DNA of 32,000 bases from an uncultured Nitrospiraceae bacterium. GTDB lineage: Bacteria; Nitrospirota; Nitrospiria; Nitrospirales; Nitrospiraceae. The translations under genes and the position numbers were made by a program. Location: the NCBI GenBank assembly GCA_963781915.1, contig CAWAIH010000016.1:1-32000 (forward strand), given 5' to 3'. The notes under the pieces were generated by a model. That model did not search any database and was not told the origin of the DNA. It saw only the letters and a program-made list of their open reading frames with translations. Below are positions 1 through 18,198 of this stretch, piece by piece; position 1 is the first letter of the stretch; every line of letters starts with the position of its first letter.

Positions 1-19
1 GCTTGGGCCACTCAAAGAA

Positions 20-1096
20 TTAGTTATTCGATGGCTGCGCAGACGGAATCTTATACACCCAATAGGCTCCCTGTTTATGGACCAACTGGACGGCTTTAAA
101 TTCGAGCGGCTGCGAGGTCGTCATGGGCAGCATCTGTGCGAGCAGCGTATTATCGCTCTTAGCATCGGTGAGGAAGTAGGCGCGCACTAAACTCTCCGAG
201 AGTCCATACACCGCTTGGGAGGTGTAGTTGTTGTCCATTTGCCAACGCTTCACCATCGCGCTTAGACCATGCACATCCCCACCCTTCAAGGGGAAGTCCT
301 TGTAGGCGACACCGATGCGATCGGGGCGCATCTGCCCAAGTTTGTAGATGTCCGAGACGTGAACCACGACATAGGTTTCGCGCCCGCCAGTCAGCTCACG
401 CAGCATCGCTGCACCCTCTGTTGACTCTGCTGATAGGGCGTCAGCAAAGCGTTGGAATTTCCCCTTCTCTTCTGCGCTTACTGTAGAGCCCCAGAACTCG
501 CGTTCGTATTTCTCGATCGCCTCGATTCGCGGTCGCCAGAGCGACGGCGTGATAAGAGGTCCACTGAGATGGGAGGTGAACACCGTCTCTAACCCGGTCA
601 AGAGCTGAATCTGACGCGAGGTGTCCCACCAGGCAAGAATGGCAGCGCCTTTCGGCACATGCTTAGCAATCACTGGCGCCAACAGGGTCAGCTCGGAGAG
701 CTTACTGTCGACGAAAATCAATGGATCGCCGGTGTAATTTTCCCAGGCGAGCATAACGGGCTTTGAATTTCCGCGGCGGGCAAGATAGGCTACAGCTACC
801 GGTTCGTCCACACCCTCTACTCGAATCTCTTGCTTGCTGATGACAAGGTCAGGCCAAGCATCTAGTCCAAGCTTGCTGAACTTATCAATACCGCCCTCTT
901 CCACTAAGCGGTAGTGATACGGCGCTGGGCCTGGACTGAACCACATAAATGCAAACCAACCTAGCATAAGAAGTCCTCCCGCCACTAGGACTATTCCTAG
1001 TGACGGGAGGACTCTACTACTTGGTCGCGTCAGCGCTGCTTCCATCGTCTGCGCTGCGCTAGTTGTCACCGCTGGTTCTTCTTGCGTCTGCTCCAT
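20..1096 (-). CDS. haoB: HaoB-like membrane protein encoded directly downstream of haoA (hydroxylamine oxidoreductase-associated, orf2 type)
   Basis: 358-aa ORF with one N-terminal hydrophobic helix ([24 protein letters not shown]) followed by a large soluble domain. It lies immediately 3' of octaheme haoA on the same strand, as in the haoA-haoB arrangement of ammonia oxidisers. The start is ambiguous: the ATG at 1096 overlaps haoA by 31 nt, the alternative ATG at 1045 does not overlap, and neither has a clear SD. The call rests on synteny and architecture, not on a diagnostic motif. Confidence 0.65.
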
Positions 1097-2775
1097 CCGG
1101 CGAGCGCGAGCGTGCCGGTCAGCAACAATCCGCCGCCCACGCTGCCGAGCGTAAGCTTCCCGTCCGTGCTATCAAAATCCAGCAGGCTACCCGTCTTGCT
1201 CTGCTCGAGTTTGGCCACACGTTCCATCAGCATCAGCCTATCCTTAAGCTTGGTGTCCTCGTCCATGATTTCGACATAAGCCCGGTTCATCGCTGCCCAG
1301 CCGACAGTGTAGGTGAACCCTGGATATTGGTGCGCGAGACTGACGTGCAGTTGCACCAGATGGTCCTCAGCCATTTCGAAGAGCTTGAGCTCGATGGCTG
1401 TAGGGCTGTTGCCCTTCGACCAGTAGATCTGCCAAAACTGGTCGAACTGGGCCTTAGCCGGCGCTGGAGGGGCAGGCCGGTTGTTCCTCTGACCGGTGAG
1501 GAGTCTAGCGTCATACTGCTTACGGACGACGTTGTGCGCCTCATCGTATTTATCGAGTCCTTCAGAGGTGCCGTTGTCCATAAACTCCAACCATGCGCGC
1601 GCGAAGCTCTCGGAGTGGCACGTTGTGCAGGTCTTGACCCACGCATCCAGGCGCTTCTGGCCCCATTCGCCAAATACAGGTTCTCTAATGCCAGGCACGA
1701 AGGGATAGTTCGCCCAGCGAACCTTACGCACCGTGTTGTGGCTGAATTTGCCCTGGTACTCCATATGACAGCTCTGGCAGGTAGGGAAGCGCTGCCCGCC
1801 CTTGGCAATTGCATCCTTGAGCTGTATATTCCAATTCGTTTGATCTTTAGAGGCCTGGTACCCCAGCCCATGCTGCGACCCGTTGTAGGCCTCCCAGTTG
1901 TTGTGGTCGGCGCCGCTGTGACAGGTGCCGCAGGCTTCAGGCTTGCGGGAGTTGGCCACCGAGAATTCGTGCCTGGTATGGCAGTTGTCGCACTTGTTCT
2001 GGTTGGTGTGGCACATTGTGCAGCCGTCAGCGATCTCACGCTGCGACATTCCGGCGTAGATATCCGTCTCGACGTTGGCCCTGTAATCCAGCGCGTGCGA
2101 CGGGCGGCCCCTCGGCCACTGGTTTTTCGGCCACAAGATCGTGTCGCGCTCGGACTCGCGCTCGGCATATTCTTGTAGATGGCAGTTGCCGCACACATCG
2201 GCAGTGGGCATCTTCAGGTCGACCCGGTGATCGGCCTTCTTCTTCGTGTTGATGTCCACGTGGCAATCGATGCAGCCAACTTCCTTCAGCGATTCGGTGG
2301 CACCGAGTTTGCCCAGGGAGCGGAGGTTCTTCTCGACGTCCTCCAGCTTCGCCTTCTTATAGTAGGTGTCATCCTTGGGGGTCAGCTTGCGAATCTTGTC
2401 AAGATTGGCGTGGACACTCTTTTTCCAAAGTACCACCCACCCAGGCGACTCATCGGTGTGGCATTTCACGCACTGCTCGCGCGTCGCAATATCCTTGACT
2501 GATGTCGGGGGCTTGTAGAACGACATTGGGTCGAAATACTTGCTCATTGGGATCGGCTCCCAATACTGGCCGTACTGCCCTTTCCCCGCGCCTCTGCCTG
2601 GATCCACGAAGCGCTTCGTCAACGCCTCATGCAACTCCTTGGGGCTGGCGGACCGATCAAGGTTCAGCGCCTCGTAGGTTTCCTTGGGGACGCTGGGGAA
2701 GTCCGCCTGAGCTGTTGCCGCAAGCAACACCCCGCAAACTACCAGGCCACATCTCAACCAGAATTTGTTGGTCAT
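1066..2775 (-). CDS. haoA: Hydroxylamine oxidoreductase, octaheme cytochrome c subunit
   Basis: Eight CxxCH heme-binding motifs read directly from the translation: CVKCH, CIDCH, CGNCH, CTMCH, CDNCH, CGTCH, CQSCH, CTTCH. Sec-type signal peptide [24 protein letters not shown]. The ATG at 2775 is preferred over the GTG at 2790 because GGGAGG lies 7 nt upstream of it. haoB is adjacent. The C-terminus has a hydrophobic stretch followed by a basic tail. Confidence 0.95.
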
Positions 2776-2905
2776 TCTTAACCCTCCCACAGATAATAAT
2801 TGCCCTATTTATAAGTCAAGCCACTCTAATGATCGTACGTGTGTATGTGCCGGTATCGCATCCACTATTGTTCATATTAGCGGTTATAATTAGCGTGCTG
2901 CGCAT

Positions 2906-2934
2906 GTATATCGCAGCATAATATTCGATGTCAA
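2906..2934 (-). promoter_or_regulatory. Putative sigma70-type promoter upstream of haoA
   Basis: On the minus strand: TTGACA (2934..2929), a 16-nt spacer, then TGcGATATA (extended -10-like, -10 at 2912..2907). It sits in an AT-rich intergenic region about 130 nt upstream of the haoA ATG. Prediction from sequence only. Confidence 0.35.
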
Positions 2935-3072
2935 TATATTAAGTGAGTTTGGTGTAAAAAAAGTCTCATATTTCTGAATTGGGCAAGTCTAGCGCCATCA
3001 GTATTCGTGTATGGCCAGATGCAAACTATTACGCGTTATAGTAATGAGAGAGAACTCTCTTGGTTCTTGAGA

Positions 3073-3528
3073 CTACGGTCTTTCGCGATCGATGACGACG
3101 GTGACCCCATCTACTCCAGGCTTCACTGGTTGACTCATCCCCTCTAAGTCTCCACTTTGCGGCATAGCCTGGCCGGACTTCGACAGACGAGCCACAATCA
3201 CCACCATTGCGACGTCGGAGAGTGTTCTGGACGGCATCATGCTGTTCGAGTCATCGAGCCGGAACGTAAAGGGCAAGTCTTTCTTCGTCGCCCGCATGAT
3301 CGCCACCGGCATCGGTGGGCCATTCGTCTCACGGGCAAACACAAATAACGTGTCCGTTGCGGACCCCTTGCCGGCAAGGCTCGGCGCAATACTGACCTTG
3401 CCGCTGATCGCAAGCGACTGTCCAGACGACTTGGCCGGCGCTGCCGGTTCCGCATATCCAGTTCCCATTGAAATAAGCAGCACGCCGCAGACCAGCAGAC
3501 TACACCTCAGCCAAAATTTGTTGACCAT
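3073..3528 (-). CDS. Exported stand-alone CcmI/CycH C-terminal-domain protein (151 aa)
   Basis: The ATG at 3528 has GGGAG 7 nt upstream; the longer ORF-track start at 3618 lies inside promoter-like sequence. Signal peptide MVNKFWLRCSLLVCGVLLISMGTGYA. The mature part (GQSLAISGKVSIAPSLAGKGSATDTLFVFARETNGPPMPVAIMRATKKDLPFTFRLDDS...VVIDRERP) differs from the last CcmI domain repeat at about 23 of 116 positions by hand alignment. Confidence 0.75.
   Translation of the reverse strand: MVNKFWLRCSLLVCGVLLISMGTGYAEPAAPAKSSGQSLAISGKVSIAPSLAGKGSATDTLFVFARETNGPPMPVAIMRATKKDLPFTFRLDDSNSMMPSRTLSDVAMVVIVARLSKSGQAMPQSGDLEGMSQPVKPGVDGVTVVIDRERP
3076..3423 (-). repeat. Copy 3 (stand-alone) of the ~350-nt CcmI C-terminal-domain coding repeat
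   Basis: Nucleotide and protein similarity to 3767..4114 and 4160..4504. For example, cgatcgatgacgacggtga occurs near the 3' end of all three copies. Confidence 0.85.
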
Positions 3529-3601
3529 GTGCATACTCCCCGTTTGTAAAAACACATCCCTACGCTCTTGAGTAAACTTATCGCTTAGCGAACAGCGCGC
3601 A

Positions 3602-3631
3602 TATATCTCAGCATACATCGGAATATGTCAA
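3602..3631 (-). promoter_or_regulatory. Putative promoter of the stand-alone CcmI-domain gene, homologous to the haoA promoter region
   Basis: On the minus strand: TTGACA (3631..3626), an 18-nt spacer, then TGaGATATA (-10 at 3607..3602). The block ATGCTG[A/C]GATATA...GCGC...CGCTAA is shared with the haoA upstream region. Confidence 0.3.
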
Positions 3632-3763
3632 GTGGGCTTGTGCAATAAATCGGGTGGCTTACTGCAATAAACAGAGCGCCCTAACGATACGTGACGGATC
3701 AGCGGCAGGAGTTATTGCAGCATGCGAGGCAATGGAAGAGAGCGGCATGTGGGCTTCTCGGCG

Positions 3764-5428
3764 TTACGGTCTTTCACGATCGATGACGACGGTGATCCCA
3801 TCCACCCCTGATTGTATCGGCTGACTCGTCCCCTCCAGATCTCCACTCTGGGGCATGGCCTGGCCAGACTTCGAGAGACGGGCGACAATCACCACAGGGC
3901 CTGCGCTGGAAAGTTTTCTGGAGGGCATCGGGCTAGTCGAGTCATCGAGTTGGAACGTAAAGGGCAAATCTTTTTTCGTTGCACGCACGATCGCCACAGG
4001 CATCGGTGGCCCACTCATCTCGCGGGCAAAGACAAACAATGTATCTGTCGCGGATGCTTTGCCGGCTAAACTCGGCGCCACAGTCACCGTACCTCTGATC
4101 GCACGCGGTTGTCCCGTCTGGCTGGCTAGCGGAGCCGGCGCTGCCGATTCTTTATCCATTCTCTCATGATCGATGACGACGGTGATCCCATCCACCCCTG
4201 ATTGTATCGGCTGGCTCGTCCCCTCCAGGTCTCCGCTTTGCGGCATGGCCTGGCCCGACTTTGACAGACGAGCGACAACAACGACCGGTCCTGCGCTGGA
4301 GAGTTTTCTGGACGGCATCGGGCTGGTTGAGTCATCGAGCTGGAACGTAAAGGGCAGATCCTTTTTCGTCGCTCGTACGATCGACACTGGCATGGGAGGG
4401 CCATTCATCTCGCGGGCAAAGACAAACAATGTATCTGTCGGTGATCCCTTGCCGGCCAAGCTGGGCGCCATCGCCACCGTGCCCTTGATTACGCGCGGCT
4501 GCCCGGCTGGCTGAGCCGGCGCCGCAGGTTCCGTAAGCCCAGACATCATGCTTTGGCCACCACCGAGTTGGCTCCGGGCCTCTTCGATAGCGGCCGTCAG
4601 TTGCTGTGTCATTTCCGGATCTACGTCCGCAGGAAGGTTTGCACGAGCTTGCTCCCAGTCCTTCGCCGCACGCGCAAAGTTTTTCCGATGGAACGCCACA
4701 GTCCCTGCCAGCATCAGTGCCTTCACATTGCGTGGATCGATCTTCAGCGCCTGCTGAATAAGGACTTCGGGTTTCCCCTCCAACTTGCGACCATGGACGA
4801 CACCCAAGGTATCGGCATAGTCGGCGAGTAACTGGGCATCATCGGGAATCAGTCCTACCGCTTTCTCATAGATCGACACGGCTTCGGCATGGCGCCCCAG
4901 TCCTACGTATGAACGCGCGAGCAACCCCCATCCCACACCATCATTCGGATTCTGCTCCATTTTCTGCTTGAGTCGCTCGACCAATCCTTCAAGTGCGTCA
5001 TCGGACGCATGCGCGCCTTCTGGCCCCCCTTGCGCAGACAACGAGGCCGCGGTTGGCTGCATCATGGCAAGTGGATTCCCCAGTTCCCAATAGAGCAACC
5101 CACTGACAACCGGAACAATGATGGCCAGTGCAATCGCAACCGGCCGGCTGCTTGCCTGGCGTACTGCCCTTGCGGGCGCCGTCTCCGTGGTGCCTGTTTC
5201 CTCCAGCAGACGACGTTCAAGCTCACGCCGCGCCTGCTCATACAATTCGTCGGTGAGCACACCGTTGGCGCGATCTTGCCCTAATTCAGCGAACTGCTGC
5301 CGGAAAATAGACAACGTCTTTTCCTGCTCTCCCGTTACGGCGACTGTGCGTTTCAGCAATGGCCACAACAGGAGAACGAGAATGAGAAGGGTCATGCTCG
5401 ATGCGATCAGCCAAAATATGATGGTCAA
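3764..5428 (-). CDS. ccmI: Cytochrome c maturation protein CcmI (CycH) with a duplicated C-terminal domain
   Basis: The N-terminal TM helix MTIIFWLIASSMTLLILVLLLWPLLKR is typical of CcmI. It is followed by a second TM, a TPR-like region (GWGLLARSYVGLGRHAEAVSIYEKAV...ALKIDPRNVKALMLAG), then two tandem ~115-aa C-terminal domains. The TTG start at 5428 forms a TTGA overlap with the ccmH stop. It is the last gene of the ccm operon. Confidence 0.9.
   Translation of the reverse strand: MTIIFWLIASSMTLLILVLLLWPLLKRTVAVTGEQEKTLSIFRQQFAELGQDRANGVLTDELYEQARRELERRLLEETGTTETAPARAVRQASSRPVAIALAIIVPVVSGLLYWELGNPLAMMQPTAASLSAQGGPEGAHASDDALEGLVERLKQKMEQNPNDGVGWGLLARSYVGLGRHAEAVSIYEKAVGLIPDDAQLLADYADTLGVVHGRKLEGKPEVLIQQALKIDPRNVKALMLAGTVAFHRKNFARAAKDWEQARANLPADVDPEMTQQLTAAIEEARSQLGGGQSMMSGLTEPAAPAQPAGQPRVIKGTVAMAPSLAGKGSPTDTLFVFAREMNGPPMPVSIVRATKKDLPFTFQLDDSTSPMPSRKLSSAGPVVVVARLSKSGQAMPQSGDLEGTSQPIQSGVDGITVVIDHERMDKESAAPAPLASQTGQPRAIRGTVTVAPSLAGKASATDTLFVFAREMSGPPMPVAIVRATKKDLPFTFQLDDSTSPMPSRKLSSAGPVVIVARLSKSGQAMPQSGDLEGTSQPIQSGVDGITVVIDRERP
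3767..4114 (-). repeat. Copy 2 (C-terminal repeat inside ccmI) of the CcmI C-terminal-domain coding repeat
   Basis: 116 codons (GQPRAIRGTV...VVIDRERP), differing from copy 1 at about 10 of 115 positions by hand alignment. Confidence 0.9.
4160..4504 (-). repeat. Copy 1 (internal repeat inside ccmI) of the CcmI C-terminal-domain coding repeat
   Basis: 115 codons (GQPRVIKGTV...VVIDHER), separated from copy 2 by a 15-codon linker (MDKESAAPAPLASQT). Confidence 0.9.
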
Positions 5429-5886
5429 GGACGATGAACTCCTTCGGATAACATTTTTTCGACACGGTTATGCTCAGCTTCCGATAATGTCACGTCGATA
5501 ACCTTTTTCTGTCTCCTGCGTAAAGCAAACACTAATCCCGTTGCGCCAACTCCCAATAATAGGAACGGCCCCAGCCAGAGCAACGTAGTCGTGAGCTTCC
5601 ACGGCGGTCGGTATAAGACGAAGTCTCCGTATCGAGTGACGAGAAAATCGATGATCTCCTTGTCGCTCATATCTTTTGCGATCATGTCCCTCACTTCTCG
5701 GCGCAAGTCCTCGGCCAACGGGGCATTCGAGTCGGCCAGCGTCTGGTTCTGACAGACCAGGCAGCGCAGCTCGACGGCGAGGGCTTTCAAACGCGCTTCA
5801 GCCTGCGGGTTCGTCGCGAGGGGCTGGGCCTCGTACGCCAAGGCGAAGCCAGGAAGGAGCAGAATGAACATCCAGAGCCATCTCAT
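5425..5886 (-). CDS. ccmH: Cytochrome c maturation thiol-redox protein CcmH (CycL)
   Basis: LRCLVCQNQTLADSNAPLA contains the CcmH LRCxxC motif. Signal peptide plus a C-terminal TM. ATGA overlap with the ccmG stop. Confidence 0.9.
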   Translation of the reverse strand: MRWLWMFILLLPGFALAYEAQPLATNPQAEARLKALAVELRCLVCQNQTLADSNAPLAEDLRREVRDMIAKDMSDKEIIDFLVTRYGDFVLYRPPWKLTTTLLWLGPFLLLGVGATGLVFALRRRQKKVIDVTLSEAEHNRVEKMLSEGVHRP

Positions 5887-6410
5887 TGCTTCTGCAACTC
5901 CCTGACCAGGGGTAAAATCTTTTTCTCCAAAATATCTTCACGTATCGGGCCAATCTGCTTGTAGCGGATGACCCCCGCCTTATCGATCACATAGGTTTCC
6001 GGCACTCCATAGACTCCGAAATTAATGCCAACGCGTCCCGACTCATCCACGGCGACGACAGGATAGGGATTGCCCCACTCCCTCAACCACGCCAAGGCCT
6101 CACTCCGTTGATCCTTATAGTCCATGCCATAGATGGGCACTTCCCCGGATTGTGCGATACGGATGAGCACCGGGTGCTCTTCCTTACAGCCTCCGCACCA
6201 AGACGCCCAGAAATTGAGCAGCCACACCTTGCCCTTAAGATCATTCGATGAAATCACTTTTCCTGGATCATGGAGCTGCGGCAGCGAAAACTCAGGCGCC
6301 GCCTTTCCGACCAAAGGAGACGGCAATTCGCGCGGGTTGAGGGTCAGCCCGACTGCAAGAAAACCGACCACGACGATGAAGAGCCCAAAGGGGATGAGAA
6401 ACCGGTTCAT
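5883..6410 (-). CDS. ccmG: Periplasmic thiol:disulfide oxidoreductase CcmG/DsbE
   Basis: The WASWCGGCKEEHP motif (WCxxC thioredoxin fold) sits behind an N-terminal anchor MNRFLIPFGLFIVVVGFLAVGL. The ATG at 6410 forms an ATGA overlap with the ccmF stop. The longer ORF-track start at 6545 would overlap ccmF by 139 nt. Confidence 0.9.
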   Translation of the reverse strand: MNRFLIPFGLFIVVVGFLAVGLTLNPRELPSPLVGKAAPEFSLPQLHDPGKVISSNDLKGKVWLLNFWASWCGGCKEEHPVLIRIAQSGEVPIYGMDYKDQRSEALAWLREWGNPYPVVAVDESGRVGINFGVYGVPETYVIDKAGVIRYKQIGPIREDILEKKILPLVRELQKQ

Positions 6411-8398
6411 GAGACAGTCGGGCGTGCCATCTGGGCCGTGGCCGGCACCGCAGCCTCTTTCCGCCGCCAGGCCAGCCGATAGCGCCGATCGCTGACGGCC
6501 AGGACGCCACCCGAGGCCATGACGAGACAGCCTCCCCAGATCCAATCGATGAAGGGCTTATGGTAGAGCCGCACGCTCCAGGCGCCGCCCTCAAGCGGCT
6601 CGCCCAACGACACGTATAGATCGCGCAGCAACCCCGGCGAGATCGCGGCTTCGGTCATCGTCTGGTTCTGGACGAAGTAGCGGCGCTTTTCGGGATACAT
6701 CACTGTCACCTCACGGCCATCCTGGCTCACATGAAACGTCCCCCGCGCCGCCACATAGTTTGGGCCATTGACCTGTTCCGTCCCGTCAAAACGGAACGTA
6801 TAGCCACCGAGCGTGGCCGTCTCACCAACGTTCATCCGCACGTCCTGCTCCACTTCAAAGCCCTTCACCATGGTCACGCCGACGATGAACAGGGCCACTC
6901 CGCAGTGGGCCAGTACCATGCCCCAATAGGCGCGGGGCAGCGTAGCCAGGCGGCCCCCGACGCTGCCGCTCTCGGCCTGGAGCAACCGCTCCCTCAAATC
7001 CACCAAGATCGTCGCCAGAATCCAGAAGGCCAACAAGAGCCCCAGACTGATCAGCGGTGTCCATTGGCCCATAAGCCATGGCACCGCCACGGCAGTCGCC
7101 AGGCTGACGCCGAAGGCCCAGCGCAGGCGGATGGCCAAGGCCGGCAGGCTCGCCTGTTTCCATTGGGCCAGCGGCCCGATCCCCATCAGAAATATGGCGG
7201 GGGTCATCAGGGGGAGAAAGACGGTGTCGAAGTACGGAGGGCCGACCGAGATTTTGCCAAGGTCCAGCGCATCCAAGAACAAGGGATACAGCGTTCCCAG
7301 GAGCACTGAGCCCAAGGCCGCCACCAACAACACATTGTTCGCCAGCAACATCCCTTCGCGTGAGATCAGGGCGAAGCTCCCACCCAGTCCGACTCGAGGC
7401 GCCCGCCAGGCGTACAGGACCAGAGAGCCGCCGATCACCACGGCCAAAAATATGAGAATGAACAAGCCGCGCTTCGGGTCGGTTGCGAACGCATGCACTG
7501 ATGTCAAGACGCCGGAGCGAACTAAGAAGGTTCCGAGCAAACTGAGCGAAAATGCCATAATAGCGAGCAGCACGCTCCAGGCTTTGAAACCACCCCGCTT
7601 ATCAGTCACCGCCAGCGAGTGCATCAAGGCGGTGCCGGCCAGCCAGGGCATGAAAGAGGCGTTTTCGACCGGATCCCAGAACCACCAGCCACCCCATCCC
7701 AGCTCGTAATAGGCCCACCCACTCCCCATCGCAACTCCCACGGTCATAAAACACCAGGCGACTGTGGTCCAGGGGCGAGACCAGCGGGCCCAAGCCGCAT
7801 CCAGCGTGCCCCCCAAGAGCGCGGCGATCGCAAAAGAAAACGCCACGGAGAACCCCACGTACCCCATGTACAGCATCGGCGGATGGATCACCATGCCAGG
7901 ATCTTGCAGCAGGGGATTCAGATCGCGCCCATCGAGTGCGGCAGGTATCAACCGCTCGAACGGATTGGAGACGGTCAACATGAATAAAAGAAATCCCACA
8001 CTGACGAGGCCCATGACGCCCAGGATGCGCGCACGCATCGCCTCTGGCAGATGGGTGGAGAAGAAAGACACAGCGACCATCCAGATGCTGAGGATGAACA
8101 TCCAGAGAAGCAACGAGCCCTCGTGCGCGCCCCAGATGGCTGCGAGGCGATAATGCAGCGGGAGCTGGGAGTTCGACGTGGCTGCGACGTAGAGCACGGA
8201 GAAGTCTTTGTCTGCAAAGGCATACCCCAGGCAACAAAAAGCCAGCAGGACCAGGAGGAATTGCCCTCGCGCCGCCGGCTTCGCAACAGCCATCAGCGAG
8301 GAGTTCCCCACCGCGGCGCCATAGATGGGCAGGCATCCCTGCACCACCGCCACGCAGAGCGCGAGAATCAAGGCATAATGACCAATTTCTGGAATCAT
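6407..8398 (-). CDS. ccmF: Cytochrome c heme lyase subunit CcmF
   Basis: 663-aa polytopic membrane protein with the WWD-type motif WGGWWFWDPVENASFMPWL. Located between ccmE and ccmG. Confidence 0.95.
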   Translation of the reverse strand: MIPEIGHYALILALCVAVVQGCLPIYGAAVGNSSLMAVAKPAARGQFLLVLLAFCCLGYAFADKDFSVLYVAATSNSQLPLHYRLAAIWGAHEGSLLLWMFILSIWMVAVSFFSTHLPEAMRARILGVMGLVSVGFLLFMLTVSNPFERLIPAALDGRDLNPLLQDPGMVIHPPMLYMGYVGFSVAFSFAIAALLGGTLDAAWARWSRPWTTVAWCFMTVGVAMGSGWAYYELGWGGWWFWDPVENASFMPWLAGTALMHSLAVTDKRGGFKAWSVLLAIMAFSLSLLGTFLVRSGVLTSVHAFATDPKRGLFILIFLAVVIGGSLVLYAWRAPRVGLGGSFALISREGMLLANNVLLVAALGSVLLGTLYPLFLDALDLGKISVGPPYFDTVFLPLMTPAIFLMGIGPLAQWKQASLPALAIRLRWAFGVSLATAVAVPWLMGQWTPLISLGLLLAFWILATILVDLRERLLQAESGSVGGRLATLPRAYWGMVLAHCGVALFIVGVTMVKGFEVEQDVRMNVGETATLGGYTFRFDGTEQVNGPNYVAARGTFHVSQDGREVTVMYPEKRRYFVQNQTMTEAAISPGLLRDLYVSLGEPLEGGAWSVRLYHKPFIDWIWGGCLVMASGGVLAVSDRRYRLAWRRKEAAVPATAQMARPTVS

Positions 8399-8406
8399 GT
8401 AGGCTC

Positions 8407-8874
8407 CTAGCGTGGATTGACGACTAACGTGCCGCTGCTCTGGGCCCCTGCGGTCTTGGCCTTGGCGAGCGCGTCCGCCGCTTCCGGCGGCATATAGTTT
8501 TCATCGTGCTTCGCCAGCACCTCACTCGCCAGGAATGCTCCATTGGCAGCGAGTTGACCCTGGGCCACGACACCCTTCCCTTCCTTGAAAAGGTCAGGGA
8601 GTATCCCTTTAAAGGTCACCGGCACTCGTTTCGCCATGTCGGTCACGATAAAATGCACAGTCAGTCCATCGCCTTCGCGGGTGAGACTTCCGGCTTCGAC
8701 CATTCCGCCGATGCGGAAGCTGCGCCCCTGGGGCACGTCCCCATTGGCCGCCTGCGTCGGCGTATAAAAGAACACGAGATTGCTCTGGAACGCATTCAAC
8801 ACCAAGAATGCCGCCACAGCCAACGCACTTAACCCCAAGCCGATCAGGACAAACCGCTTCTTTCGAGGTGTCAT
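8407..8874 (-). CDS. ccmE: Heme chaperone CcmE
   Basis: 155 aa with an N-terminal anchor, an OB-fold-like body and the heme-binding region [12 protein letters not shown] (HxxxY). Confidence 0.95.
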
Positions 8875-8889
8875 CGTCTTCGATTCCTC

Positions 8890-9045
8890 CTACGACTCAT
8901 CACGGCTCCCTGCCGCAGCCGCATGCCGCCGCCACACCGCGAGCACTTCCCCTCCCATACACAGGGCCGTGACGCCAAACGAGGGCCACACGTAGAGGCC
9001 GTACCCGCCCATCGCAAAAAACTCTGCCAGGCTCCCCCACTGCAT
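8890..9045 (-). CDS. ccmD: Heme exporter protein CcmD
   Basis: 51-aa product MQWGSLAEFFAMGGYGLYVWPSFGVTALCMGG..., matching the CcmD pattern (AFFAMGGYG.YVW). Its ATG overlaps the ccmC stop (TGATG). It corresponds to only the last 51 codons of the 189-aa ORF-track entry 8890..9459. Confidence 0.8.
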   Translation of the reverse strand: MQWGSLAEFFAMGGYGLYVWPSFGVTALCMGGEVLAVWRRHAAAAGSRDES

Positions 9046-9806
9046 CAGCGCGCCTCCACGACATCCGGCATCGACGCCTGCTTGCCCCACGACGGTTGTC
9101 GCTCCCGTTCGGCAATCACGCAACGCATACGGGCCAAGGTCACCGCGATACTGTACATCCAGAAGCCGAACATCATCACTAACATCGCCGTCACCATCGT
9201 CCCCGCCATCGTCGGCGCCGCTGTGATGCTGACCGAGGCTCCTTGATGCAACGTGTTCCACCAACGCACAGAAAAATAGATGATCGGGACATTGATCACC
9301 CCCACCAGCGCCAAGACGGCGCTCGCGCGATCCGCGCGGCGCAGGTCGTCGATCGATGAGCGCAGCAAGATGATCCCGATATATTGAAACAGCAAAATCA
9401 ACTCCGACGTCAACCGAGCATCCCACACCCACCAGGCTCCCCAAGTGGGTTTTCCCCACATCGACCCCGTAAACAGCGCGAGGAACGTAAACATCGCCCC
9501 GGTAGGAGCGATGGCCTGCGCCATCATGAACGAGGGGCGCGCATTGAGCCCCAATCCGAGACCGGCCCAGATCGCCATGATGACGTAGAGAAACATGGAC
9601 ATCCAGGCTGCCGGCACATGAACGAAAATAATGCGGTACGCATCACCTTGCGTCACATCGGTCGGTGCCACGAAAAATCCAACGTACAGGCCGACCCCGA
9701 TCAACCCCAGCGCCAAGGCAGCAAACCACGGGATCATCCGCCCGGCTAAGGGGTACAAGGCCTGCGGCGAGGAATACTTAAACCAGTTAATGCCTGTGGC
9801 GCTCAT
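9045..9806 (-). CDS. ccmC: Heme exporter membrane protein CcmC
   Basis: 253-aa membrane protein with the WWD motif WGKPTWGAWWVWDARLTSE. Confidence 0.95.
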   Translation of the reverse strand: MSATGINWFKYSSPQALYPLAGRMIPWFAALALGLIGVGLYVGFFVAPTDVTQGDAYRIIFVHVPAAWMSMFLYVIMAIWAGLGLGLNARPSFMMAQAIAPTGAMFTFLALFTGSMWGKPTWGAWWVWDARLTSELILLFQYIGIILLRSSIDDLRRADRASAVLALVGVINVPIIYFSVRWWNTLHQGASVSITAAPTMAGTMVTAMLVMMFGFWMYSIAVTLARMRCVIAERERQPSWGKQASMPDVVEAR

Positions 9807-9815
9807 AATGATCTC

Positions 9816-10499
9816 TTATTCCAATGCAATGCGTAATGCAACAGCAGTAGCCCATGGCGCAAATGCAAATGAGAACAGGAAGCAGGCTCCGAGTAACGAC
9901 AGATTTGCTTCGCTGCCGATTCCGGCCAAACTACTCGTGACGGCGCCGGCTCCGAAAATCAGCACCGGAATAAAAAGGGGAAGCACGAGCAGGGCAACCA
10001 GCAAGCCACTCCCGCGCAACCCAAGAGTTAACGCAGCACCCACCGCTCCAATCATACTCAACGTCGGCGTGCCAAGCAAGAGCGATAACGTCAATGCCCA
10101 CAACGGGGGACCACTCAAGCCGAATTGCAAACCGAGCAGGGGCGAGAGCAGGACCACCGGCAGACCCGAGATCACCCAGTGAGAGAACACCTTACCAACA
10201 ACCAGCACCGCCAAAGGCTGAGGGATCAACAACGTCTGTTCCAATACACCATCAAGATAATCGGCTGTAAAGAGACGCCCAAGTGATAACAGGCAGGCTA
10301 GCAGGGCCGTGACCCAGAGCACGCCGGAGGCGATCACCCTCAGAACCGCCGGCTCCGGCCCGACCCCCAATGGAAAGAGGCTCGCGACGATAACGACGAA
10401 GAAAACCGACATCGCCACATCCGAACGATGCCGCATGGCCAGCAGAAGATCCCGCCGAATGACCCCGCGCAATGCCTCACTCATGCTGGGCTGGCTCAT
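9816..10499 (-). CDS. ccmB: Heme exporter permease CcmB
   Basis: 227-aa polytopic membrane protein between ccmA and ccmC. ATGA overlap with the ccmA stop. Confidence 0.9.
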   Translation of the reverse strand: MSQPSMSEALRGVIRRDLLLAMRHRSDVAMSVFFVVIVASLFPLGVGPEPAVLRVIASGVLWVTALLACLLSLGRLFTADYLDGVLEQTLLIPQPLAVLVVGKVFSHWVISGLPVVLLSPLLGLQFGLSGPPLWALTLSLLLGTPTLSMIGAVGAALTLGLRGSGLLVALLVLPLFIPVLIFGAGAVTSSLAGIGSEANLSLLGACFLFSFAFAPWATAVALRIALE

Positions 10500-11116
10500 C
10501 GAGTCAGCCTCAAATGCTGGATAGAATCAGCCGGGATAGCAATCTCCTGGTGCGTGGCGACGACCACCATGCCGCCATTATTCAAATGCGCATGCAGGCG
10601 CTGGGTCAAATAACTTGTGGCTGCAGCATCGAGTGACGCGAAAGGCTCATCCAAGAGCCATAACGGACGAGTAGAAAGCCAGAGACGCGCCAGCGACACA
10701 CGACGCTTTTGTCCTTGCGATAGCACCCTCGTCGGCAAGCGATGAACCGGTCGTACGAGGCCAACTGCCTCCAATGCTTTTTGCACGATTGCGCCGGAAC
10801 TTTCATCGCCGGCCAGACAGGCCGAGACCGTAAGGTTTTCGACTGGGGTTAGCTCATCCTTGATTCCGTTGAGATGCCCGACATAGGTCAGCTGTGCGCT
10901 ATAGAGCTCCTTGAGCCGGCGGATGTCTTTCCCCTGCCAGAGGATTGCGCCTTCATCAGGAGACAACAGACCACAGAGCATACGGAGAAAGCTGGTTTTT
11001 CCACTGCCGTTCTCACCAACCACAGCCAGCAGAGTTCCAGGCTTGACCGTCACGCTGACGTCGGAGAACAACTGTCGGTCCCCGCGGCTACCGCTCAGTG
11101 CAACGGTTTGGAACAT
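10496..11116 (-). CDS. ccmA: Heme exporter ATP-binding protein CcmA
   Basis: Walker A GENGSGKTS, ABC signature LSQGQKRRVSLARL, Walker B LWLLDEPFASLD. The start is placed at the ATG at 11116 (MFQTVALSG...). The 36 codons upstream in the ORF track have no ABC similarity. The SD is weak, so the start is uncertain. Confidence 0.9.
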   Translation of the reverse strand: MFQTVALSGSRGDRQLFSDVSVTVKPGTLLAVVGENGSGKTSFLRMLCGLLSPDEGAILWQGKDIRRLKELYSAQLTYVGHLNGIKDELTPVENLTVSACLAGDESSGAIVQKALEAVGLVRPVHRLPTRVLSQGQKRRVSLARLWLSTRPLWLLDEPFASLDAAATSYLTQRLHAHLNNGGMVVVATHQEIAIPADSIQHLRLTR

Positions 11117-11571
11117 ATTAGGAAAAACCCCACGGAGAACGAAGAGAAAGTAGTACGGCAGCGTCGAGCCTTCTTGAATCGTGCTGTTCGTGAGCCTGTT
11201 ACCGGCACCGTCTGACGTCCCCACAGTTGCAACTGCCGCTGAGGCACTACTCCAATAGCACGGTCGATCAAGGTCGATGTCACTGTATCACCTTAGGGGA
11301 CTCGTGAAAGGGCCACAGGCTGGCTCCCCGATTGTCGCCCATCCGATAGTGGCAAGTCAAAGAGACTGGAGACAGAAAATGCATTCAGTTTTGTCGCTTG
11401 CCTTGCACGGAGGGGAGGGGGCTAGAATCTTGCCCCATCTTAGTGGCATCATGGTGAAGTATCTGATATGCCATGTCACTAATTCACATCATTATTAGTA
11501 CAGTGAAATCGCATGGCCGCACGAAATAGCAGAGCGTTGTAAGATCCATAACAGGAGGGTCCGGCATAATT

Positions 11572-12159
11572 ATGATAAGGCAAGTGACACGGGCAGCGGC
11601 TACAGTGCTCCTTCTTGTTGTCGCACTGTACCACCCCGGCGACGCCGCGGCACATGGCTCAGTGAGCGGGGAAGACGATCCCTGCTTACGGCGGGTAGGT
11701 GAGCGCGTGATACATTTCAGCGCCTATCAGCCGCAATATGAGCTGAGAGATCAATACTGCACGGACATTCCCAAGGAAGGCGACACCTTCCTCGTTGTAG
11801 ACCTCGTAGATCCGGCCTTGCGCAACGAGCCGGTCGGAATGCGGATCATGAGGGGGAACGGCTCCAATGAGTCAGAAGATCAGCTCGTAGCAGATATTCG
11901 GCCTAGCACCCACCCGGATGGAGTGCTCCGGGGCGAGGTCCGTCTTGCCGAGGGTCTCTATACGGTCACCATAGCGGCGGAGAAACAGAATCTGATGCGG
12001 CGCCCCCAATATCTATTGCGGGTACACATGATCGATTACCAGAAACTTGTGCGTACCATGACCGTACCGGCGATAGCAGTTCTGATCGTTGCATTGATTG
12101 GATACATACTCATACGATCGAAGTGGCTGCGAAATTGGTGGGCAGTCCGCCGTTCGTAG
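11572..12159 (+). CDS. amoE: AmoE/AmoD (PmoD-family)-like exported, C-terminally anchored protein; most divergent of three paralogs
   Basis: Signal peptide (cleavage predicted AAA/HGS), a ~130-aa periplasmic domain and a C-terminal TM helix (VPAIAVLIVALIGYILI). Conserved core C-x9-H-F-x-x-Y-Q-P...C-x-D-I-P-x-x-G-x-T. It sits upstream of copCD next to amo genes, as amoE/amoD do in ammonia oxidisers. The symbol is assigned from position and divergence only. Confidence 0.6.
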   Translation: MIRQVTRAAATVLLLVVALYHPGDAAAHGSVSGEDDPCLRRVGERVIHFSAYQPQYELRDQYCTDIPKEGDTFLVVDLVDPALRNEPVGMRIMRGNGSNESEDQLVADIRPSTHPDGVLRGEVRLAEGLYTVTIAAEKQNLMRRPQYLLRVHMIDYQKLVRTMTVPAIAVLIVALIGYILIRSKWLRNWWAVRRS

Positions 12160-12219
12160 AAAACCGGGCGCTCCGGCAAGCGAGCATATATTCAACATTC
12201 GAGAGGGAGGATACTGACA

Positions 12220-12801
12220 ATGGTTGTGCAATGGTTGAGGCCTATCGGCTTGTGCGTCTTGATGCTGGCAATCGGAATGCCATTCTTCTCCACACAGGCC
12301 CAGGCTCATGGAGGACTGGCACTGGCAGAAGACATGTGCAGGCTCACGATCGGCCCGTACAACATGCACTTTACCGGCTATCAGCCCGACAACACACGCA
12401 ATAAGGAGTTCTGCGAAGATATTCCGGCGACCGGTCGCACGGTTGTCGTGCTTGATTATATGGAAGATGCGCTCCGTCCGTTGCCTACCGAAGTTCGGAT
12501 CATCAAGGATACAGGCTCGGAGCAAGACATTCAGGCCATCACAGTCCTGCACCTGCCGCCCAAGGTCTACCCCGCCGGCTCGGTTAATTTCGAATATAAC
12601 TTCGATCGACCCGGCAAATTCGTTGGTCTGGTTACCGTGGGTGATAAGCATGTATCGCGATTCCCGTTCTCGGTAGGGGAAACGAAAATTTGGTTACCCC
12701 CCTCCTATATGTTAATTGCGCTCGCAGGGGTTGCTGTTATCGGAGTGATCGTCTTTGCCATGCGCGGGCGTGGCAGAGCATCAAACAGTTCCGTTTCGTA
12801 G
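12220..12801 (+). CDS. amoD: AmoD (PmoD-family)-like exported, C-terminally anchored protein, paralog 2
   Basis: SD GAGGGAGG. Signal peptide cleavage predicted AQA/HGG. Core CRLTIGPYNMHFTGYQPDNTRNKEFCEDIPATGRTVVVLD. C-terminal TM LIALAGVAVIGVIVFAM. Closely similar to the next gene. Confidence 0.7.
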   Translation: MVVQWLRPIGLCVLMLAIGMPFFSTQAQAHGGLALAEDMCRLTIGPYNMHFTGYQPDNTRNKEFCEDIPATGRTVVVLDYMEDALRPLPTEVRIIKDTGSEQDIQAITVLHLPPKVYPAGSVNFEYNFDRPGKFVGLVTVGDKHVSRFPFSVGETKIWLPPSYMLIALAGVAVIGVIVFAMRGRGRASNSSVS

Positions 12802-12900
12802 GCGGACAGCCTTCCGTCCAAAGCGCGGGCGCGACTCTGGCTCAACGAGGAAATTGAGCTGTCTAAAATAGATATGGATAGAATAATGAGGATACTGACG

Positions 12901-13488
12901 ATGTCTTTGCAATTTCTGAAACCGGTGGTCATGTGTTTCTTGATGCTGGCGCTCGGAGGCCCACTCTCCGCTCAGGCCCAGCACTTTCACGAATTGGATA
13001 AAAACTTTTGCATACTTAAATTCGGACCCTACGGCATGCACCTTACCGAATATCAGCCCGACATCTCAGATCGGCAGGAGCTCTGCGGGGATATTCCGTC
13101 GACCGGACGCACGGTAGTGGTGCTCGATTTTATCGAAGGAGAACTCCGCTCGTTACCCGTCGAGGTCAGGGTCATCAAGGATACGGGTTCGGAGCAGGAT
13201 CTTCAGGCCCTCACAATCGTTCACCTGCCGGCCAAAATCTACACGGGGGGGTTCATCAATTTCGAACATAGCTTCAACCAGCCCGGCAAATTCATCGGTA
13301 TCATCACCGTTGGCGGCAAGGAAGAACATGTCGCGCGATTCCCGATTTCAGTAGGAGAATCGGGAGTAGCTTCACACTTCATGCACTACATCATGGTCAT
13401 AGTCCCACTCGCAGTGATTGCCGTTGGAGCAGCGATCTTCTTTTTTCTGCGCGGACGTCGAAAATCCTCGCTTAGCACCGTTTCGTAG
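12901..13488 (+). CDS. amoD: AmoD (PmoD-family)-like exported, C-terminally anchored protein, paralog 3
   Basis: The start at 12901 is chosen because GAGGATACTGACgATG matches the amoD start context GAGGATACTGACaATG, and the N-termini then align (MSLQFLKPVVMCFLMLALGG vs MVVQWLRPIGLCVLMLAIGM). Core CILKFGPYGMHLTEYQPDISDRQELCGDIPSTGRTVVVLD. C-terminal TM present. Confidence 0.7.
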   Translation: MSLQFLKPVVMCFLMLALGGPLSAQAQHFHELDKNFCILKFGPYGMHLTEYQPDISDRQELCGDIPSTGRTVVVLDFIEGELRSLPVEVRVIKDTGSEQDLQALTIVHLPAKIYTGGFINFEHSFNQPGKFIGIITVGGKEEHVARFPISVGESGVASHFMHYIMVIVPLAVIAVGAAIFFFLRGRRKSSLSTVS

Positions 13489-13542: not shown

Positions 13543-13947
13543 ATGGAATCACGGGTAGCTTATGTACTCAAGCTCGTCATGGCAGTCGTGGTAATGGCGA
13601 CGATGACGTACCTGCATGTCGACCCGGCGCTGGCGCATTCGATGCTGGTCAAGGCAGAGCCACCGCGCCGGGCTGTCCTCGCCAAGACACCGGCACAGGT
13701 GCGACTCTGGTTCAACGAAGAACTCGAAGGCGAGTACGCGTCGCTTATTGTGCTCGACGCTGAGAAGCATCCCGTTACCGAGATCAAGCCACAGCTTGCT
13801 CCGAATGACCCAAAGTCTATCGTCCTGCCGTTGCCGGAGTTGACGCCCGGAAAGTATTCAGTGAAGTTTCGAGTCCTGTCGGTAGACGGTCATGTGGTGG
13901 AGTCGTCTTTCGACTTCACTGTAAAGGGCAAAGTACAAAAGAAATGA
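13543..13947 (+). CDS. copC: Periplasmic copper-binding protein CopC
   Basis: SD AAAGGAGG. The signal peptide ends ALA/HSM, giving a mature N-terminal His. The family-typical D-x-H occurs near the C-terminus (SVDGHVV). There is no Met-rich Cu(I) loop. ATGA overlap with copD. Confidence 0.9.
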   Translation: MESRVAYVLKLVMAVVVMATMTYLHVDPALAHSMLVKAEPPRRAVLAKTPAQVRLWFNEELEGEYASLIVLDAEKHPVTEIKPQLAPNDPKSIVLPLPELTPGKYSVKFRVLSVDGHVVESSFDFTVKGKVQKK

Positions 13948-15965
13948 TCGAGATCATCGGCGCGCTGCTCCGCTGGCTGCAGCTTGCGTCCAACATGATC
14001 CTGATTGGCAGCTGCATTTTTCTTGCGATTGCCGTGCGCTCAAAAACGGCACTCGACGCCCCTTGGCTAGCCCGTCTGGCGCGGGTTCTACCGTGGATTT
14101 CTATCACGCTTCTGCTGGGATTGCTGGGCTTGCTGGCCACGACTACCGCGCAGGCCACGGGCATGGCTGAAAATGCTTGGCGCCCGGGAGCCTGGCTAGA
14201 ACTTTTACAAAAAACCCGCATAGGACTCATCTGGACAGTGCGTGCGGCCCTTGCGTTTCTCGTGTTCGGAATAGCTCTCTACATTCGCTTCTCCCCTTGG
14301 GCGCGCTGGCGGTATATGCTGTGCGCTACCGTTGCCGCGCTCACGCTGGCTATGGGGTCACTCGCTAGCCACTCTGCAGCCGGAGAGCTGTCCGTGATAT
14401 CGGTGCTGCCATATGCGCTGCATATCGTTTTGGCGAGCGTCTGGCTCGGAGGGCTGCCGGCCGTTCTCTCAATAATGTTCGCCACCACCGGGAAACGATC
14501 ACACGAGGAAGTGGATCGGTTCGACATCCAGACCCTAAAGCGCTTCTCTGCACTAGCACTTCCCGTGATGGTCGCTGTCGTGGCAACCGGCACCATCGTT
14601 GCGTATGACATGGTGGACACGAGCTATGCCGCATTGGTCGCAACGAGCTGGGGCTGGTTTCTCGATACAAAGATTGCACTGCTTGGAGTGATTCTCGTGC
14701 TTGCCGCGTGCGCGCGCCATATCTGGATTCCGTCACTCGACAAGAACGCGGAAGTAGCTGCAGCCGGCGGACGTGGACTTCGAAAGTGGGTCACCGTCGA
14801 ATTCGTGATCGCGTTGGCGATGGTGCTGGTCGCGACAATGCTGGCTAACGCCGTTCCGGCGAAACATGCCGTCATTGAGGACTGGCCCTATCCATTCCGC
14901 TTCTCCATCGACGCCACCTGGGGCGGGCTGGGCATGATGATCGGCGCGGGGATAGGAGTCGCGTTGCTTATCCTGGCAGTTGGAGCGATTGCCCTCGGTC
15001 GGTCCAAGCGCTGGGAGACGAAGTGGCGCATTGCCATCCCGACTGTACTGGCGGTCTGTGCGCTGGTTGCGGCGCTGCCTCCCCTTGCCACTCAGGCTTT
15101 TCCGGAAACCTACCGCAAGACGCCGGTCCCGTTCGATGCCATTTCCGTTGCCAACGGTGCGACCATATTTGCCGCGAATTGCGTACTCTGCCACGGACCT
15201 CAAGCCAAGGGCAATGGAGTTCTAGCCAAGACCTTTCCTATACCACCGGTGGATCTACTTACGGAACCGCACACCGCCAAGCATACGGCAGGGGACTTTT
15301 TCCACTGGCTGACCCACGGTATACCCGGTACTGGCATGCCGGCGTTTGCCGACAAACTCTCGGAAGAGGATCGCTGGGATGTCGTAAACTTTCTCCATGC
15401 CACATCCCGCGGCTATCAGGCGCGCCTCATCAACCCCTATGTCGCCCCCAATCAACCCTATATGGCCCCGCAGAATTTCTCTTATTCCGCGCATGACGAT
15501 TCGAGCGGCACCTTGAAAGACTTTCGTCGACAGAAAGCAGTTCTGCTGGTTCTATTTTCCTGGCCGGAGTCGCGCGCAAGGCTGGATCAGTTGCGGTCGG
15601 CTTATGCCACACTAAGCGCCGCCAATACATTGATATTGGCAGCATCAGTGAATGATCTCAACCCGGAAGATCTGGCGGCGATCACGGCAGGCATGACTTT
15701 CCCTGTTGCGACGCAGGGGGCATCGGAGATCACGCGCAGCTACGCCCTGTTCCGTAGAACCCTCAGCAACCCTGATTTGGCCGGCGAGGGAACAATGCCG
15801 AAACACATGGAGTTCCTGATTGACCGTTATGGCTATTTGCGGGCGCGATGGATTCCTGCGGTGGATGGGACTGGGTGGACAGACATCGGGGAACTGATGC
15901 GGCAAGTCGAACAACTCAACCGGGAAAAAGAACTCCGTCCGCCACCAGACGACCATGTGCACTGA
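13944..15965 (+). CDS. copD: CopD-family membrane protein fused to a c-type cytochrome domain and a C-terminal Cys-less redoxin/thioredoxin-like domain
   Basis: The N-terminal ~300 aa is polytopic and CopD-like, directly coupled to copC, and is followed by two further TM helices. A class I cytochrome c domain follows: CVLCH at codons 413-417 (nt 15180..15194), with a distal GTGMPAF Met. The C-terminal ~150 aa resembles an AhpC/TSA-type fold (KAVLLVLFSWPES...HMEFLIDRYGYLRARW) but has no cysteine at the active-site position. Confidence 0.85.
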   Translation: MIEIIGALLRWLQLASNMILIGSCIFLAIAVRSKTALDAPWLARLARVLPWISITLLLGLLGLLATTTAQATGMAENAWRPGAWLELLQKTRIGLIWTVRAALAFLVFGIALYIRFSPWARWRYMLCATVAALTLAMGSLASHSAAGELSVISVLPYALHIVLASVWLGGLPAVLSIMFATTGKRSHEEVDRFDIQTLKRFSALALPVMVAVVATGTIVAYDMVDTSYAALVATSWGWFLDTKIALLGVILVLAACARHIWIPSLDKNAEVAAAGGRGLRKWVTVEFVIALAMVLVATMLANAVPAKHAVIEDWPYPFRFSIDATWGGLGMMIGAGIGVALLILAVGAIALGRSKRWETKWRIAIPTVLAVCALVAALPPLATQAFPETYRKTPVPFDAISVANGATIFAANCVLCHGPQAKGNGVLAKTFPIPPVDLLTEPHTAKHTAGDFFHWLTHGIPGTGMPAFADKLSEEDRWDVVNFLHATSRGYQARLINPYVAPNQPYMAPQNFSYSAHDDSSGTLKDFRRQKAVLLVLFSWPESRARLDQLRSAYATLSAANTLILAASVNDLNPEDLAAITAGMTFPVATQGASEITRSYALFRRTLSNPDLAGEGTMPKHMEFLIDRYGYLRARWIPAVDGTGWTDIGELMRQVEQLNREKELRPPPDDHVH

Positions 15966-17256: not shown

Positions 17257-17280
17257 ATACTTAAACAAGGAGGTCAGGGT

Positions 17281-18078: not shown

Positions 18079-18198
18079 ATCGTACTGGTGGTGTTACTGG
18101 GCTGACCGCGCGCTCCGGATTCCGAAGAGCGAGGTTGCCCATAGACTAGCTGGAACAAGGGAGAGAACAGATGTTTCGAATGAGTGAGGAGGAGACAA

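Follow-up and report, generated by a model that had tools for sequence, protein, structure and literature searches.

A free-standing Ig_CycH domain with a haoA-type promoter-like element and leader between ccmI and haoA in the ammonia-oxidation island of a Nitrospiraceae bacterium

We analyzed a stretch of 32,000 nucleotides (nt) from an uncultured Nitrospiraceae bacterium (positions 1 to 32,000 of contig CAWAIH010000016.1, GenBank assembly GCA_963781915.1), hereafter referred to as the window, and in particular a small open reading frame (ORF), which we call S, that lies between a cluster of cytochrome c maturation genes and the gene for an octahaem hydroxylamine oxidoreductase (HAO). The first 11 kb of the window are read from the minus strand, as are the features described below for this part, and contain in order of transcription ccmABCDEFGH, ccmI, S, the octahaem haoA and a putative haoB. 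S itself (3073..3528) encodes 151 amino acids followed by a stop codon and consists of a signal peptide, a Pro/Ala linker and a single Ig_CycH domain, an assignment that draws on Pfam, on the orthologues and on synteny. The adjacent ccmI gene (3764..5428) encodes a protein of 554 amino acids in which Pfam recognized a tetratricopeptide repeat (TPR) region and two tandem Ig_CycH domains behind an N-terminal membrane segment. The N-terminus is hydrophobic and of the CcmI type (MTIIFWLIASSMTLLILVLLLWPLLKR), a family whose membrane anchor has two transmembrane helices. The TPR region spans residues 137-268 (4625..5020), corresponds to the stretch matched by TPR_CcmH_CycH (PF23914; hmmscan against Pfam, E 3.3e-20), and matches the NrfG structure 2e2e. 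On the other side of S, haoA (1066..2775) encodes 569 amino acids with eight CxxCH motifs (Pfam Multi-haem_cyto, E 6e-133).

The Ig_CycH domain corresponds to Pfam family PF23892, "Cytochrome c-type biogenesis protein H Ig-like domain", and is present three times at this locus. CcmI matched the family over two stretches (E 5.6e-69, 229 bits), which we designate I1 (residues 309-423; 4160..4504) and I2 (residues 439-554, at the C-terminus; 3767..4114) and which are joined by a Pro/Ala-rich linker of 15 residues (4115..4159). The third copy makes up residues 36-151 of S (3076..3423) and covers positions 2-108 of the 108-position model with an E value of 9.7e-37 and a score of 125.5 bits, against a gathering cutoff of 27. 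A linker of the EPAAPA type precedes every copy. The three copies align without gaps, with I1 and I2 differing at 11 of 116 residues and 52 of 348 nt, S and I2 at 23 of 116 residues and 73 of 348 nt, and S and I1 at 27 of 116 residues and 80 of 348 nt. Comparison of copy with copy by blastp gave E values of 1e-64 to 1e-77, and a DNA repeat finder retrieved the same three copies at 79-80% identity. An initial annotation, made from the sequence without database searches, had placed the C-terminal domain of CcmI/CycH at these three positions, and had counted about 10 differences in 115 residues between the two copies within CcmI, about 23 in 116 between S and the last of them, and 15 residues in the linker. 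Both the identity of the domain and the counts proved accurate.

The same annotation had allowed that a better assembly might reveal a single copy. The copies differ by 15-23% in nucleotide sequence, however, and the I1-I2 pair shows a synonymous divergence (dS) of 0.71 with a ratio of non-synonymous to synonymous divergence (dN/dS) of 0.07, which indicates an old duplication with both copies maintained rather than an artefact of assembly. Moreover, tandem-Ig ccmI, S and haoA lie together on one contig in six independent assemblies, namely loci L003, L004, L007, L008, L011 and, with its 5' end cut, L002, and the layout was seen on single contigs of up to 354 kb. In a neighbour-joining tree, I2 clustered with the single Ig domain of loci L005 and L012. 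We also observed that I2 is nearly identical to its counterpart in L009 and L015 (dS ~0.05), while I1 is far from theirs (dS ~0.6). This contrast between the two copies indicates a mosaic, recombinant history for the interior of ccmI.

We then considered whether S behaves as a gene in its own right. The mechanically defined ORF begins at 3618, but translation probably begins with the ATG of position 3528, which lies 7 nt after GGGGAG; this ribosome-binding site and the start codon are both conserved. A search of metagenomic proteins returned more than 100 clusters formed at 90% identity, with members of 151-154 amino acids that are 79-99% identical to S; most are unnamed or labelled "CcmH" or "hypothetical", and those with named sources come from Nitrospira. 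A protein of the Nitrospira metagenome-assembled genome (MAG) ELA165 is 100% identical to S. Among contigs taken from one genome per species, 11 loci, each from Nitrospira/Nitrospiraceae, had an intact S in the interval from ccmI to haoA. The S copies are monophyletic in the neighbour-joining tree, and their mean dN/dS, estimated by the Nei-Gojobori method over 48 pairs with dS between 0.15 and 1.2, was 0.106. Within a genome, S is separated from the CcmI copies by a dS of ~0.9, so that the constraint acts on S itself. Recent gene conversion was considered as a source of the low dN/dS of S, and it was ruled out by the monophyly of S together with this dS. Across all Ig copies dN/dS ranged from 0.04 to 0.18, consistent with strong purifying selection on each, although S (0.10) has changed about twice as fast non-synonymously as the orthologous CcmI copies (0.04-0.07). 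Judged by this conservation, S is a functional gene, and one that is specific to the clade-B-type lineage of comammox Nitrospira.

The predicted signal peptide of S (MVNKFWLRCSLLVCGVLLISMGTGYA; 3451..3528) was recognized by its homology to the haoA leader, and the cleavage site, before EPAAPA, was read by eye. S has one N-terminal hydrophobic stretch followed by a cleavage site of the A-x-A type, in place of the two-helix anchor of CcmI, and the A/G/V-x-A/S cleavage motif is kept in the S orthologues. The cleavable signal peptide that had been proposed for the small protein is thus well supported as a prediction. No TPR match (PF23914) was detected in S at E values up to 0.01, whereas the 554-residue CcmI has one. 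Since S lacks both the membrane anchor and the TPR region and carries a HaoA-derived leader, it is not a CcmI, and the label "CcmH" attached to it in JGI data is a misnomer. A structure predicted for the 151-residue protein alone with AlphaFold2 yielded a seven-stranded beta-sandwich with predicted local distance difference test (pLDDT) values above 90 in the domain. Comparison of this model with the PDB returned Ig or transthyretin-like folds of a generic kind, and the Ig_CycH family has no solved structure; the only fold resemblance, to a type II secretion system (T2SS) pilotin, was weak (TM-score 0.42 normalized to the query and 0.53 normalized to the target). At the sequence level the domain has conserved motifs (DTLFVFAR, GPPMP, LDDS and SKSG..GDL.G), and S retains all residues that are invariant in the family. 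Just 3 of 116 positions are fully diagnostic between S and the CcmI copies, and S is nearer to the consensus of clade-A-like CcmI than the derived clade-B CcmI copies are. In these respects S looks like a conservative copy that would work in trans, and not like a neofunctionalized protein.

The DNA upstream of S resembles that upstream of haoA. A promoter-like element was read from the sequence before each gene: upstream of S (3595..3631) it consists of TTGACA (3631-3626), an 18-nt spacer and TGA-GATATA, and upstream of haoA (2900..2934) of TTGACA (2934-2929), a 16-nt spacer and TGC-GATATA. Embedded in the two elements are the homologous conserved motifs CTGAGATATATGCGCGC (3611-3595) and CTGCGATATACATGCGC (2916-2900), whose common form is CTG(A/C)GATAYA..GCGC, accompanied by a perfect TTGACA, a spacer of 16-18 nt and TGn-GATATA. 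Within the 32 kb of the window this motif occurs upstream of S and of haoA and at no other site. Among the 66 loci that were compared it gave 17 matches in 14 loci, all of them either just upstream of S or haoA or, at the end of a contig, directly after ccmI (L012, L015), and none in the proteobacterial loci. The element upstream of S is conserved in the 11 loci that carry the gene. In a scan for promoters and terminators, neither the interval from ccmI to S nor that from S to haoA gave a convincing terminator.

The similarity to haoA continues into the coding region. The S N-terminus, MVNKFWLRCSLLVCGVLL...GYA/EPAAPA, resembles the HaoA leader, which ends AQA/DFP, and the part of haoA that encodes its signal peptide (2722-2775) was recovered by the repeat finder as the second copy of a repeat, D3; the two signal-peptide sequences are 78-80% identical in DNA over ~50 nt (49 nt at 80%, E 2e-8). 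When the segment 4114..3475 was compared with 3423..2722, the Ig domain (350 nt, 79%), a promoter patch (31 nt, 77%) and the signal peptide matched in collinear order. A single tandem duplication of ~700 bp is the simplest account of this arrangement. The ancestral arrangement would have been ccmI followed after ~240 nt by haoA, as is still present in the clade-A-like locus L020. The duplicated segment would have begun at the linker in front of the Ig domain of CcmI and ended where the haoA signal peptide ends, with the intergenic hao promoter in between, so that the internal junction would have placed the hao promoter and signal peptide in front of the linker and Ig domain of CcmI. The extra Ig domain inside CcmI would stem from a separate and older tandem duplication of 390 bp. 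Read in this way, S is a chimera, with a promoter-like element and leader of the haoA type and a mature part of the CcmI type.

Two further loci-level patterns concern this junction. Locus L010, which has no S, carries the same promoter and an S-type 5' untranslated region (5'UTR) before haoA, and its single CcmI Ig domain is S-like; this state would fit either a reverse unequal crossover or a later recombination. Between ccmI and the hao-type promoter of L010 (1181-2435 of that locus) we also observed ~1.1 kb of degraded ferredoxin/oxidoreductase-like ORFs. Separately, the HaoA leader in the window and in L001 is of the S-gene type, while relatives whose HaoA is 90-94% identical (L002-L004, L008 and L016 were compared) have a leader of the form MRSKLWVRCVLVLSG.LL and a different 5'UTR. 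Over positions 2722-2934 of the window, which cover the beginning of haoA and the DNA upstream, recombination or gene conversion with S appears to have replaced the 5' end of the gene.

The distribution of S follows a division within comammox Nitrospira. The S-bearing loci include those of genomes CG24_A and CG24_C, which belong to clade B by amoA (10.1101/138586). Clade-B-type loci have one, two or three Ig domains in CcmI plus the free copy. Loci with a divergent CcmI (57-66% identity), which we read as clade-A-like from features other than amoA, have a single Ig domain and no S, and in two of these, L019 and L020, ccmI is followed directly by haoA. The 36 proteobacterial CcmI loci in the comparison have one Ig domain each, with neither a tandem nor a free copy. 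The earlier proposal that this lineage has expanded the domain is in line with these counts. A "CcmI duplication" in clade B had already been noted in a 2017 preprint, although it was not dissected there (10.1101/138586), and it is very probably the S gene.

Outside this group, we surveyed the domain with a HMMER scan of 1.84 billion representative proteins, which gave 5381 matches, and inspected the best 150 of these 5381, taken as representatives at 50% identity. These 150 included 45 full-length CcmI proteins with two Ig domains and 4 with three; the automatic class of full-length proteins with three Ig domains held 8, 4 of which are lipoproteins. The assumption in the initial annotation that CcmI carries the domain once does therefore not hold in general. 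The best-150 list favours multi-domain proteins, whose domain scores add up, and by a rough estimate multi-Ig forms may make up a few percent of CcmI families. Examples are a two-Ig CcmI from Usitatibacter (HEX3099222.1), an unclassified betaproteobacterial protein, and P0123, which has three Ig domains and is encoded in a plain ccmABCDEFGHI-dsb operon. The gene surroundings of two multi-Ig CcmI proteins were inspected and proved in each case to be an ordinary ccm operon that lacks hao. For 72 of 118 domains the nearest relative was a sibling domain of the same protein, which points to repeated independent duplications or to concerted evolution. Routine duplication or a stand-alone form of the domain in unrelated ccm operons had been named beforehand as an observation that would speak against the initial proposal; the multi-Ig CcmI proteins bear this objection out in part.

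Free-standing versions of the domain, of which the initial annotation was not aware, do exist in other phyla. Lipoproteins made up only of two or three Ig_CycH domains were found in Nitrospinota, Tectomicrobia, Myxococcales and ocean metagenomes (for example P0196, P0190, P0170 and P0231, annotated as hypothetical), and at loci L065 and L066 they lie in housekeeping contexts without ccm or hao. Among the representatives inspected, the single-domain, Sec-secreted form with a hao-derived leader was confined to the comammox group. The other short matches in the best 150 of 5381, taken up as candidate single-Ig free homologues, were rejected as N-terminally truncated CcmI fragments; this verdict does not extend to the comammox family or to the triple-Ig lipoproteins. 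One short protein, P0246 (181 amino acids), has two N-terminal hydrophobic helices joined straight to an Ig_CycH domain with no TPR, and it could be a true TPR-less variant or a misassembly.

What S might do has to be judged from CcmI. CcmI is anchored in the membrane, faces the periplasm and belongs to CcmFHI, the complex for haem ligation. The C-terminal helix of apocytochromes is bound by the TPR region of CcmI, which also suppresses aggregation. With its hao-type element and leader, S would be made together with HAO, exported by Sec and released by signal peptidase, and would then be present in the periplasm as a free Ig_CycH domain. Since it keeps the family invariants and differs at so few diagnostic positions, it most likely shares its binding partner with the CcmI tail; candidates for this partner would be an unfolded apocytochrome segment or a component of the Ccm system such as CcmE, CcmH or CcmF. 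S would thereby supply the activity of the CcmI tail in trans and in excess while the 16 haems of HaoA, CycA and CycB are being attached during synthesis, and would assist maturation without being indispensable for it. On balance we lean towards this account, in which S would have originated in the ~700 bp duplication, would be co-produced with HAO and would assist cytochrome maturation. The initial annotation had linked the small protein to HAO, and this link is strengthened by the haoA-type promoter-like element and signal peptide of a gene that adjoins haoA; as far as the sequence alone can tell, S shares both the neighbourhood and the promoter-like motif of haoA. A role as a chaperone dedicated to the apocytochrome of HAO is plausible from the predicted co-regulation and shared compartment. 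We are doubtful of a more specific version, in which S would be a client-specific holdase or escort that recognizes the nitrification cytochromes (HaoA, c554 and cM552) and passes them to System I. If true, the C-terminal domain of CcmI would be a second apocytochrome-binding site distinct from the TPR, and the one to three copies plus the free copy would tune throughput for multihaem clients.

Several observations weigh against a function of S in cytochrome maturation. Apocytochrome binding has been assigned to the TPR region of CcmI and not to its C-terminal region (PMC3884852; PMC3601427), and E. coli can do without the whole of the CcmI-like part (PMC3601427). In Pseudomonas aeruginosa CcmI the TPR is followed by a disordered linker and an alpha/beta C-terminal region with no assigned role (PMC3884852), and the literature that we searched contained no paper naming PF23892 or Ig_CycH and none giving a function to the C-terminal domain of CcmI. 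The absence of S from clade-A-like loci implies that it is not needed for HAO maturation in general, and L010 is a clade-B-like locus without it. The variation from one to three CcmI Ig domains in close relatives suggests that dosage is not critical. No S-type match, leader included, was found outside Nitrospira/Nitrospiraceae, though no search was aimed at ammonia-oxidizing bacteria. A generic sigma-70 scan did not call the promoter-like element, which was recognized as a conserved motif only. Finally, the occurrence of the Ig_CycH-only lipoproteins in contexts without ccm or hao suggests that the domain may have a more general periplasmic role.

This last point leads to the alternative that survives best, in which Ig_CycH would be a general periplasmic spacer or docking module with no tie to apocytochromes, and the extra copies would be variants of dosage or geometry with small effects; copy number might, for example, alter the reach of CcmI across the periplasm. 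The independent tandem duplications in many CcmI lineages with ordinary ccm operons would be expected under this alternative, as would the lipoproteins in housekeeping contexts, the variation in copy number among close relatives and the weakness of the pilotin resemblance, the sole fold match in the PDB. A free soluble copy could not act as a spacer, however, and the strong purifying selection on all copies (dN/dS 0.04-0.18) and the conserved motifs suggest a specific binding surface, so that we consider the alternative possible but unlikely.

Alternatively, S might no longer take part in cytochrome maturation and might serve mature HAO, or the complex that HAO forms with cytochrome c554, as a small partner or as a subunit for assembly, produced in step with HaoA through a shared promoter. 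Small partners of HAO-family enzymes have been reported, such as NE1300 with Nitrosomonas europaea HAO and an assembly factor with the anammox hydrazine dehydrogenase. A hao-type promoter-like element and signal peptide, on a gene immediately upstream of haoA, would suit such a partner, and the roughly twofold higher non-synonymous rate of S relative to the orthologous CcmI copies could reflect a new role. Against this, the diagnostic positions number only 3 in 116, the proximity of S to the clade-A-like CcmI consensus marks it as conservative, and clade-A-like loci carry hao with no S; we therefore regard an HAO partner as improbable. That S is a non-functional by-product of duplication, or that the repeats are an artefact of assembly, is scarcely credible, for although MAG assemblies often break at these repeats (L001, L013, L015, L023) and a few database entries have damaged N-termini (P0130, P0158), the ORF is intact in every one of the 11 loci and across more than 100 protein clusters, its dN/dS is 0.11 at dS of up to 1.2, its ribosome-binding site and start codon are conserved, and the nucleotide divergence of the copies and the recurrence of the layout on long single contigs are as described above.

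The remaining genes of the locus place S in a nitrification context. The System I cytochrome c maturation genes ccmA-ccmH (5425..11224) lie upstream of ccmI as ORFs whose order matches that of annotated ccm operons; the individual names of ccmA-G were given from order and length, and ccmH precedes ccmI throughout the related loci. The putative haoB (20..1096), which encodes 358 amino acids and overlaps the end of haoA, gave no Pfam match and is named by position only, although an ORF directly after haoA is present in all related loci. In these loci two tetrahaem ORFs follow haoB, in agreement with the initial expectation of c554/cM552-type genes past the left edge of the window. The System I cluster is located within an ammonia-oxidation island of the comammox Nitrospira type, and the remainder of the window contains further parts of that island, including amoCAB, a CopD fusion and a NirK-like protein. 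Most canonical Nitrospira are without System I (10.1101/138586; PMC6852473). A scan of positions 1-12000 against Rfam detected no RNA family.

Elsewhere in the window, an IS1595-family transposase gene (16142-17050, plus strand) lies directly upstream of amoCAB (17227-20351); similar transposases have been described beside the amoCAB genes of further comammox genomes (PMC6852473). A SulP-type sulfate permease is present as two ORFs on the minus strand (23554-24399 and 24604-25335) that correspond to the C- and N-terminal halves of the Pfam model, and it is probably a pseudogene or split by a frameshift. An ORF of 673 amino acids (13944-15965, plus strand) joins CopD to a monohaem domain of the cytochrome c type and to a region with weak similarity to AhpC/TSA in an unusual fusion, and sits in the copper-handling part of the island. 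Between ccmA and this fusion (11572-13488, plus strand) there are three ORFs of 193-204 amino acids without a Pfam match, one of which has a signal-peptide-like start. With regard to assembly, contigs of MAGs end in or beside the Ig repeats in the four loci named above, and two of these, L001 and L015, are contigs of a single MAG, ELA165, that is split exactly between ccmI and S. The Ig repeats thus fragment short-read assemblies at the ccm-hao junction, which is of practical concern for genome work on these organisms.

Taken as a whole, S does not amount to a new system. It appears to be an Ig_CycH domain that was taken out of CcmI and provided with the promoter-like element and leader of a neighbouring gene. 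It would represent a case of gene birth in which one tandem duplication captured the promoter and signal peptide of a neighbour. As a naturally excised, soluble and strongly conserved domain of 12 kDa, it offers an experimental handle on the C-terminal domain of CcmI, and since it was found only in loci read as clade-B-type, it is a possible marker of clade B in the ammonia-oxidation island.

Functional parallels to S are Ccm-derived genes that lie beside a multihaem enzyme, such as NrfEFG with NrfA, and Wolinella MccA with a lyase dedicated to its CX15CH haem. They share with the proposed role of S the notion of a maturation accessory for one particular client. NrfG corresponds to the TPR part of CcmI and serves a CXXCK site, whereas S corresponds to the non-TPR part, has no dedicated lyase alongside, and adjoins an enzyme whose eight haem motifs are all standard CxxCH, with no non-standard motif of the kind found in NrfG-type clients. 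The Ig_CycH-only lipoproteins resemble S in being free-standing periplasmic proteins built from Ig_CycH domains only, but they have two or three domains, are tethered to the membrane through a lipobox, share only 35-45% identity, and have a separate origin. Multi-Ig CcmI proteins from elsewhere among the bacteria carry tandem copies of the C-terminal Ig_CycH domain with Pro/Ala-rich linkers, just as the CcmI described here does, but most of these duplications look independent in origin, and they occur with neither a hao neighbour nor a free copy. A further close relative is CcmI/CycH itself. Mature S is an Ig_CycH domain that is 77-80% identical to both domains of the adjacent CcmI and belongs to the same compartment and gene cluster; it differs from CcmI in that the membrane segment and TPR region are missing and that, in their place, it carries a HaoA-derived Sec leader and a hao-type promoter-like element of its own.

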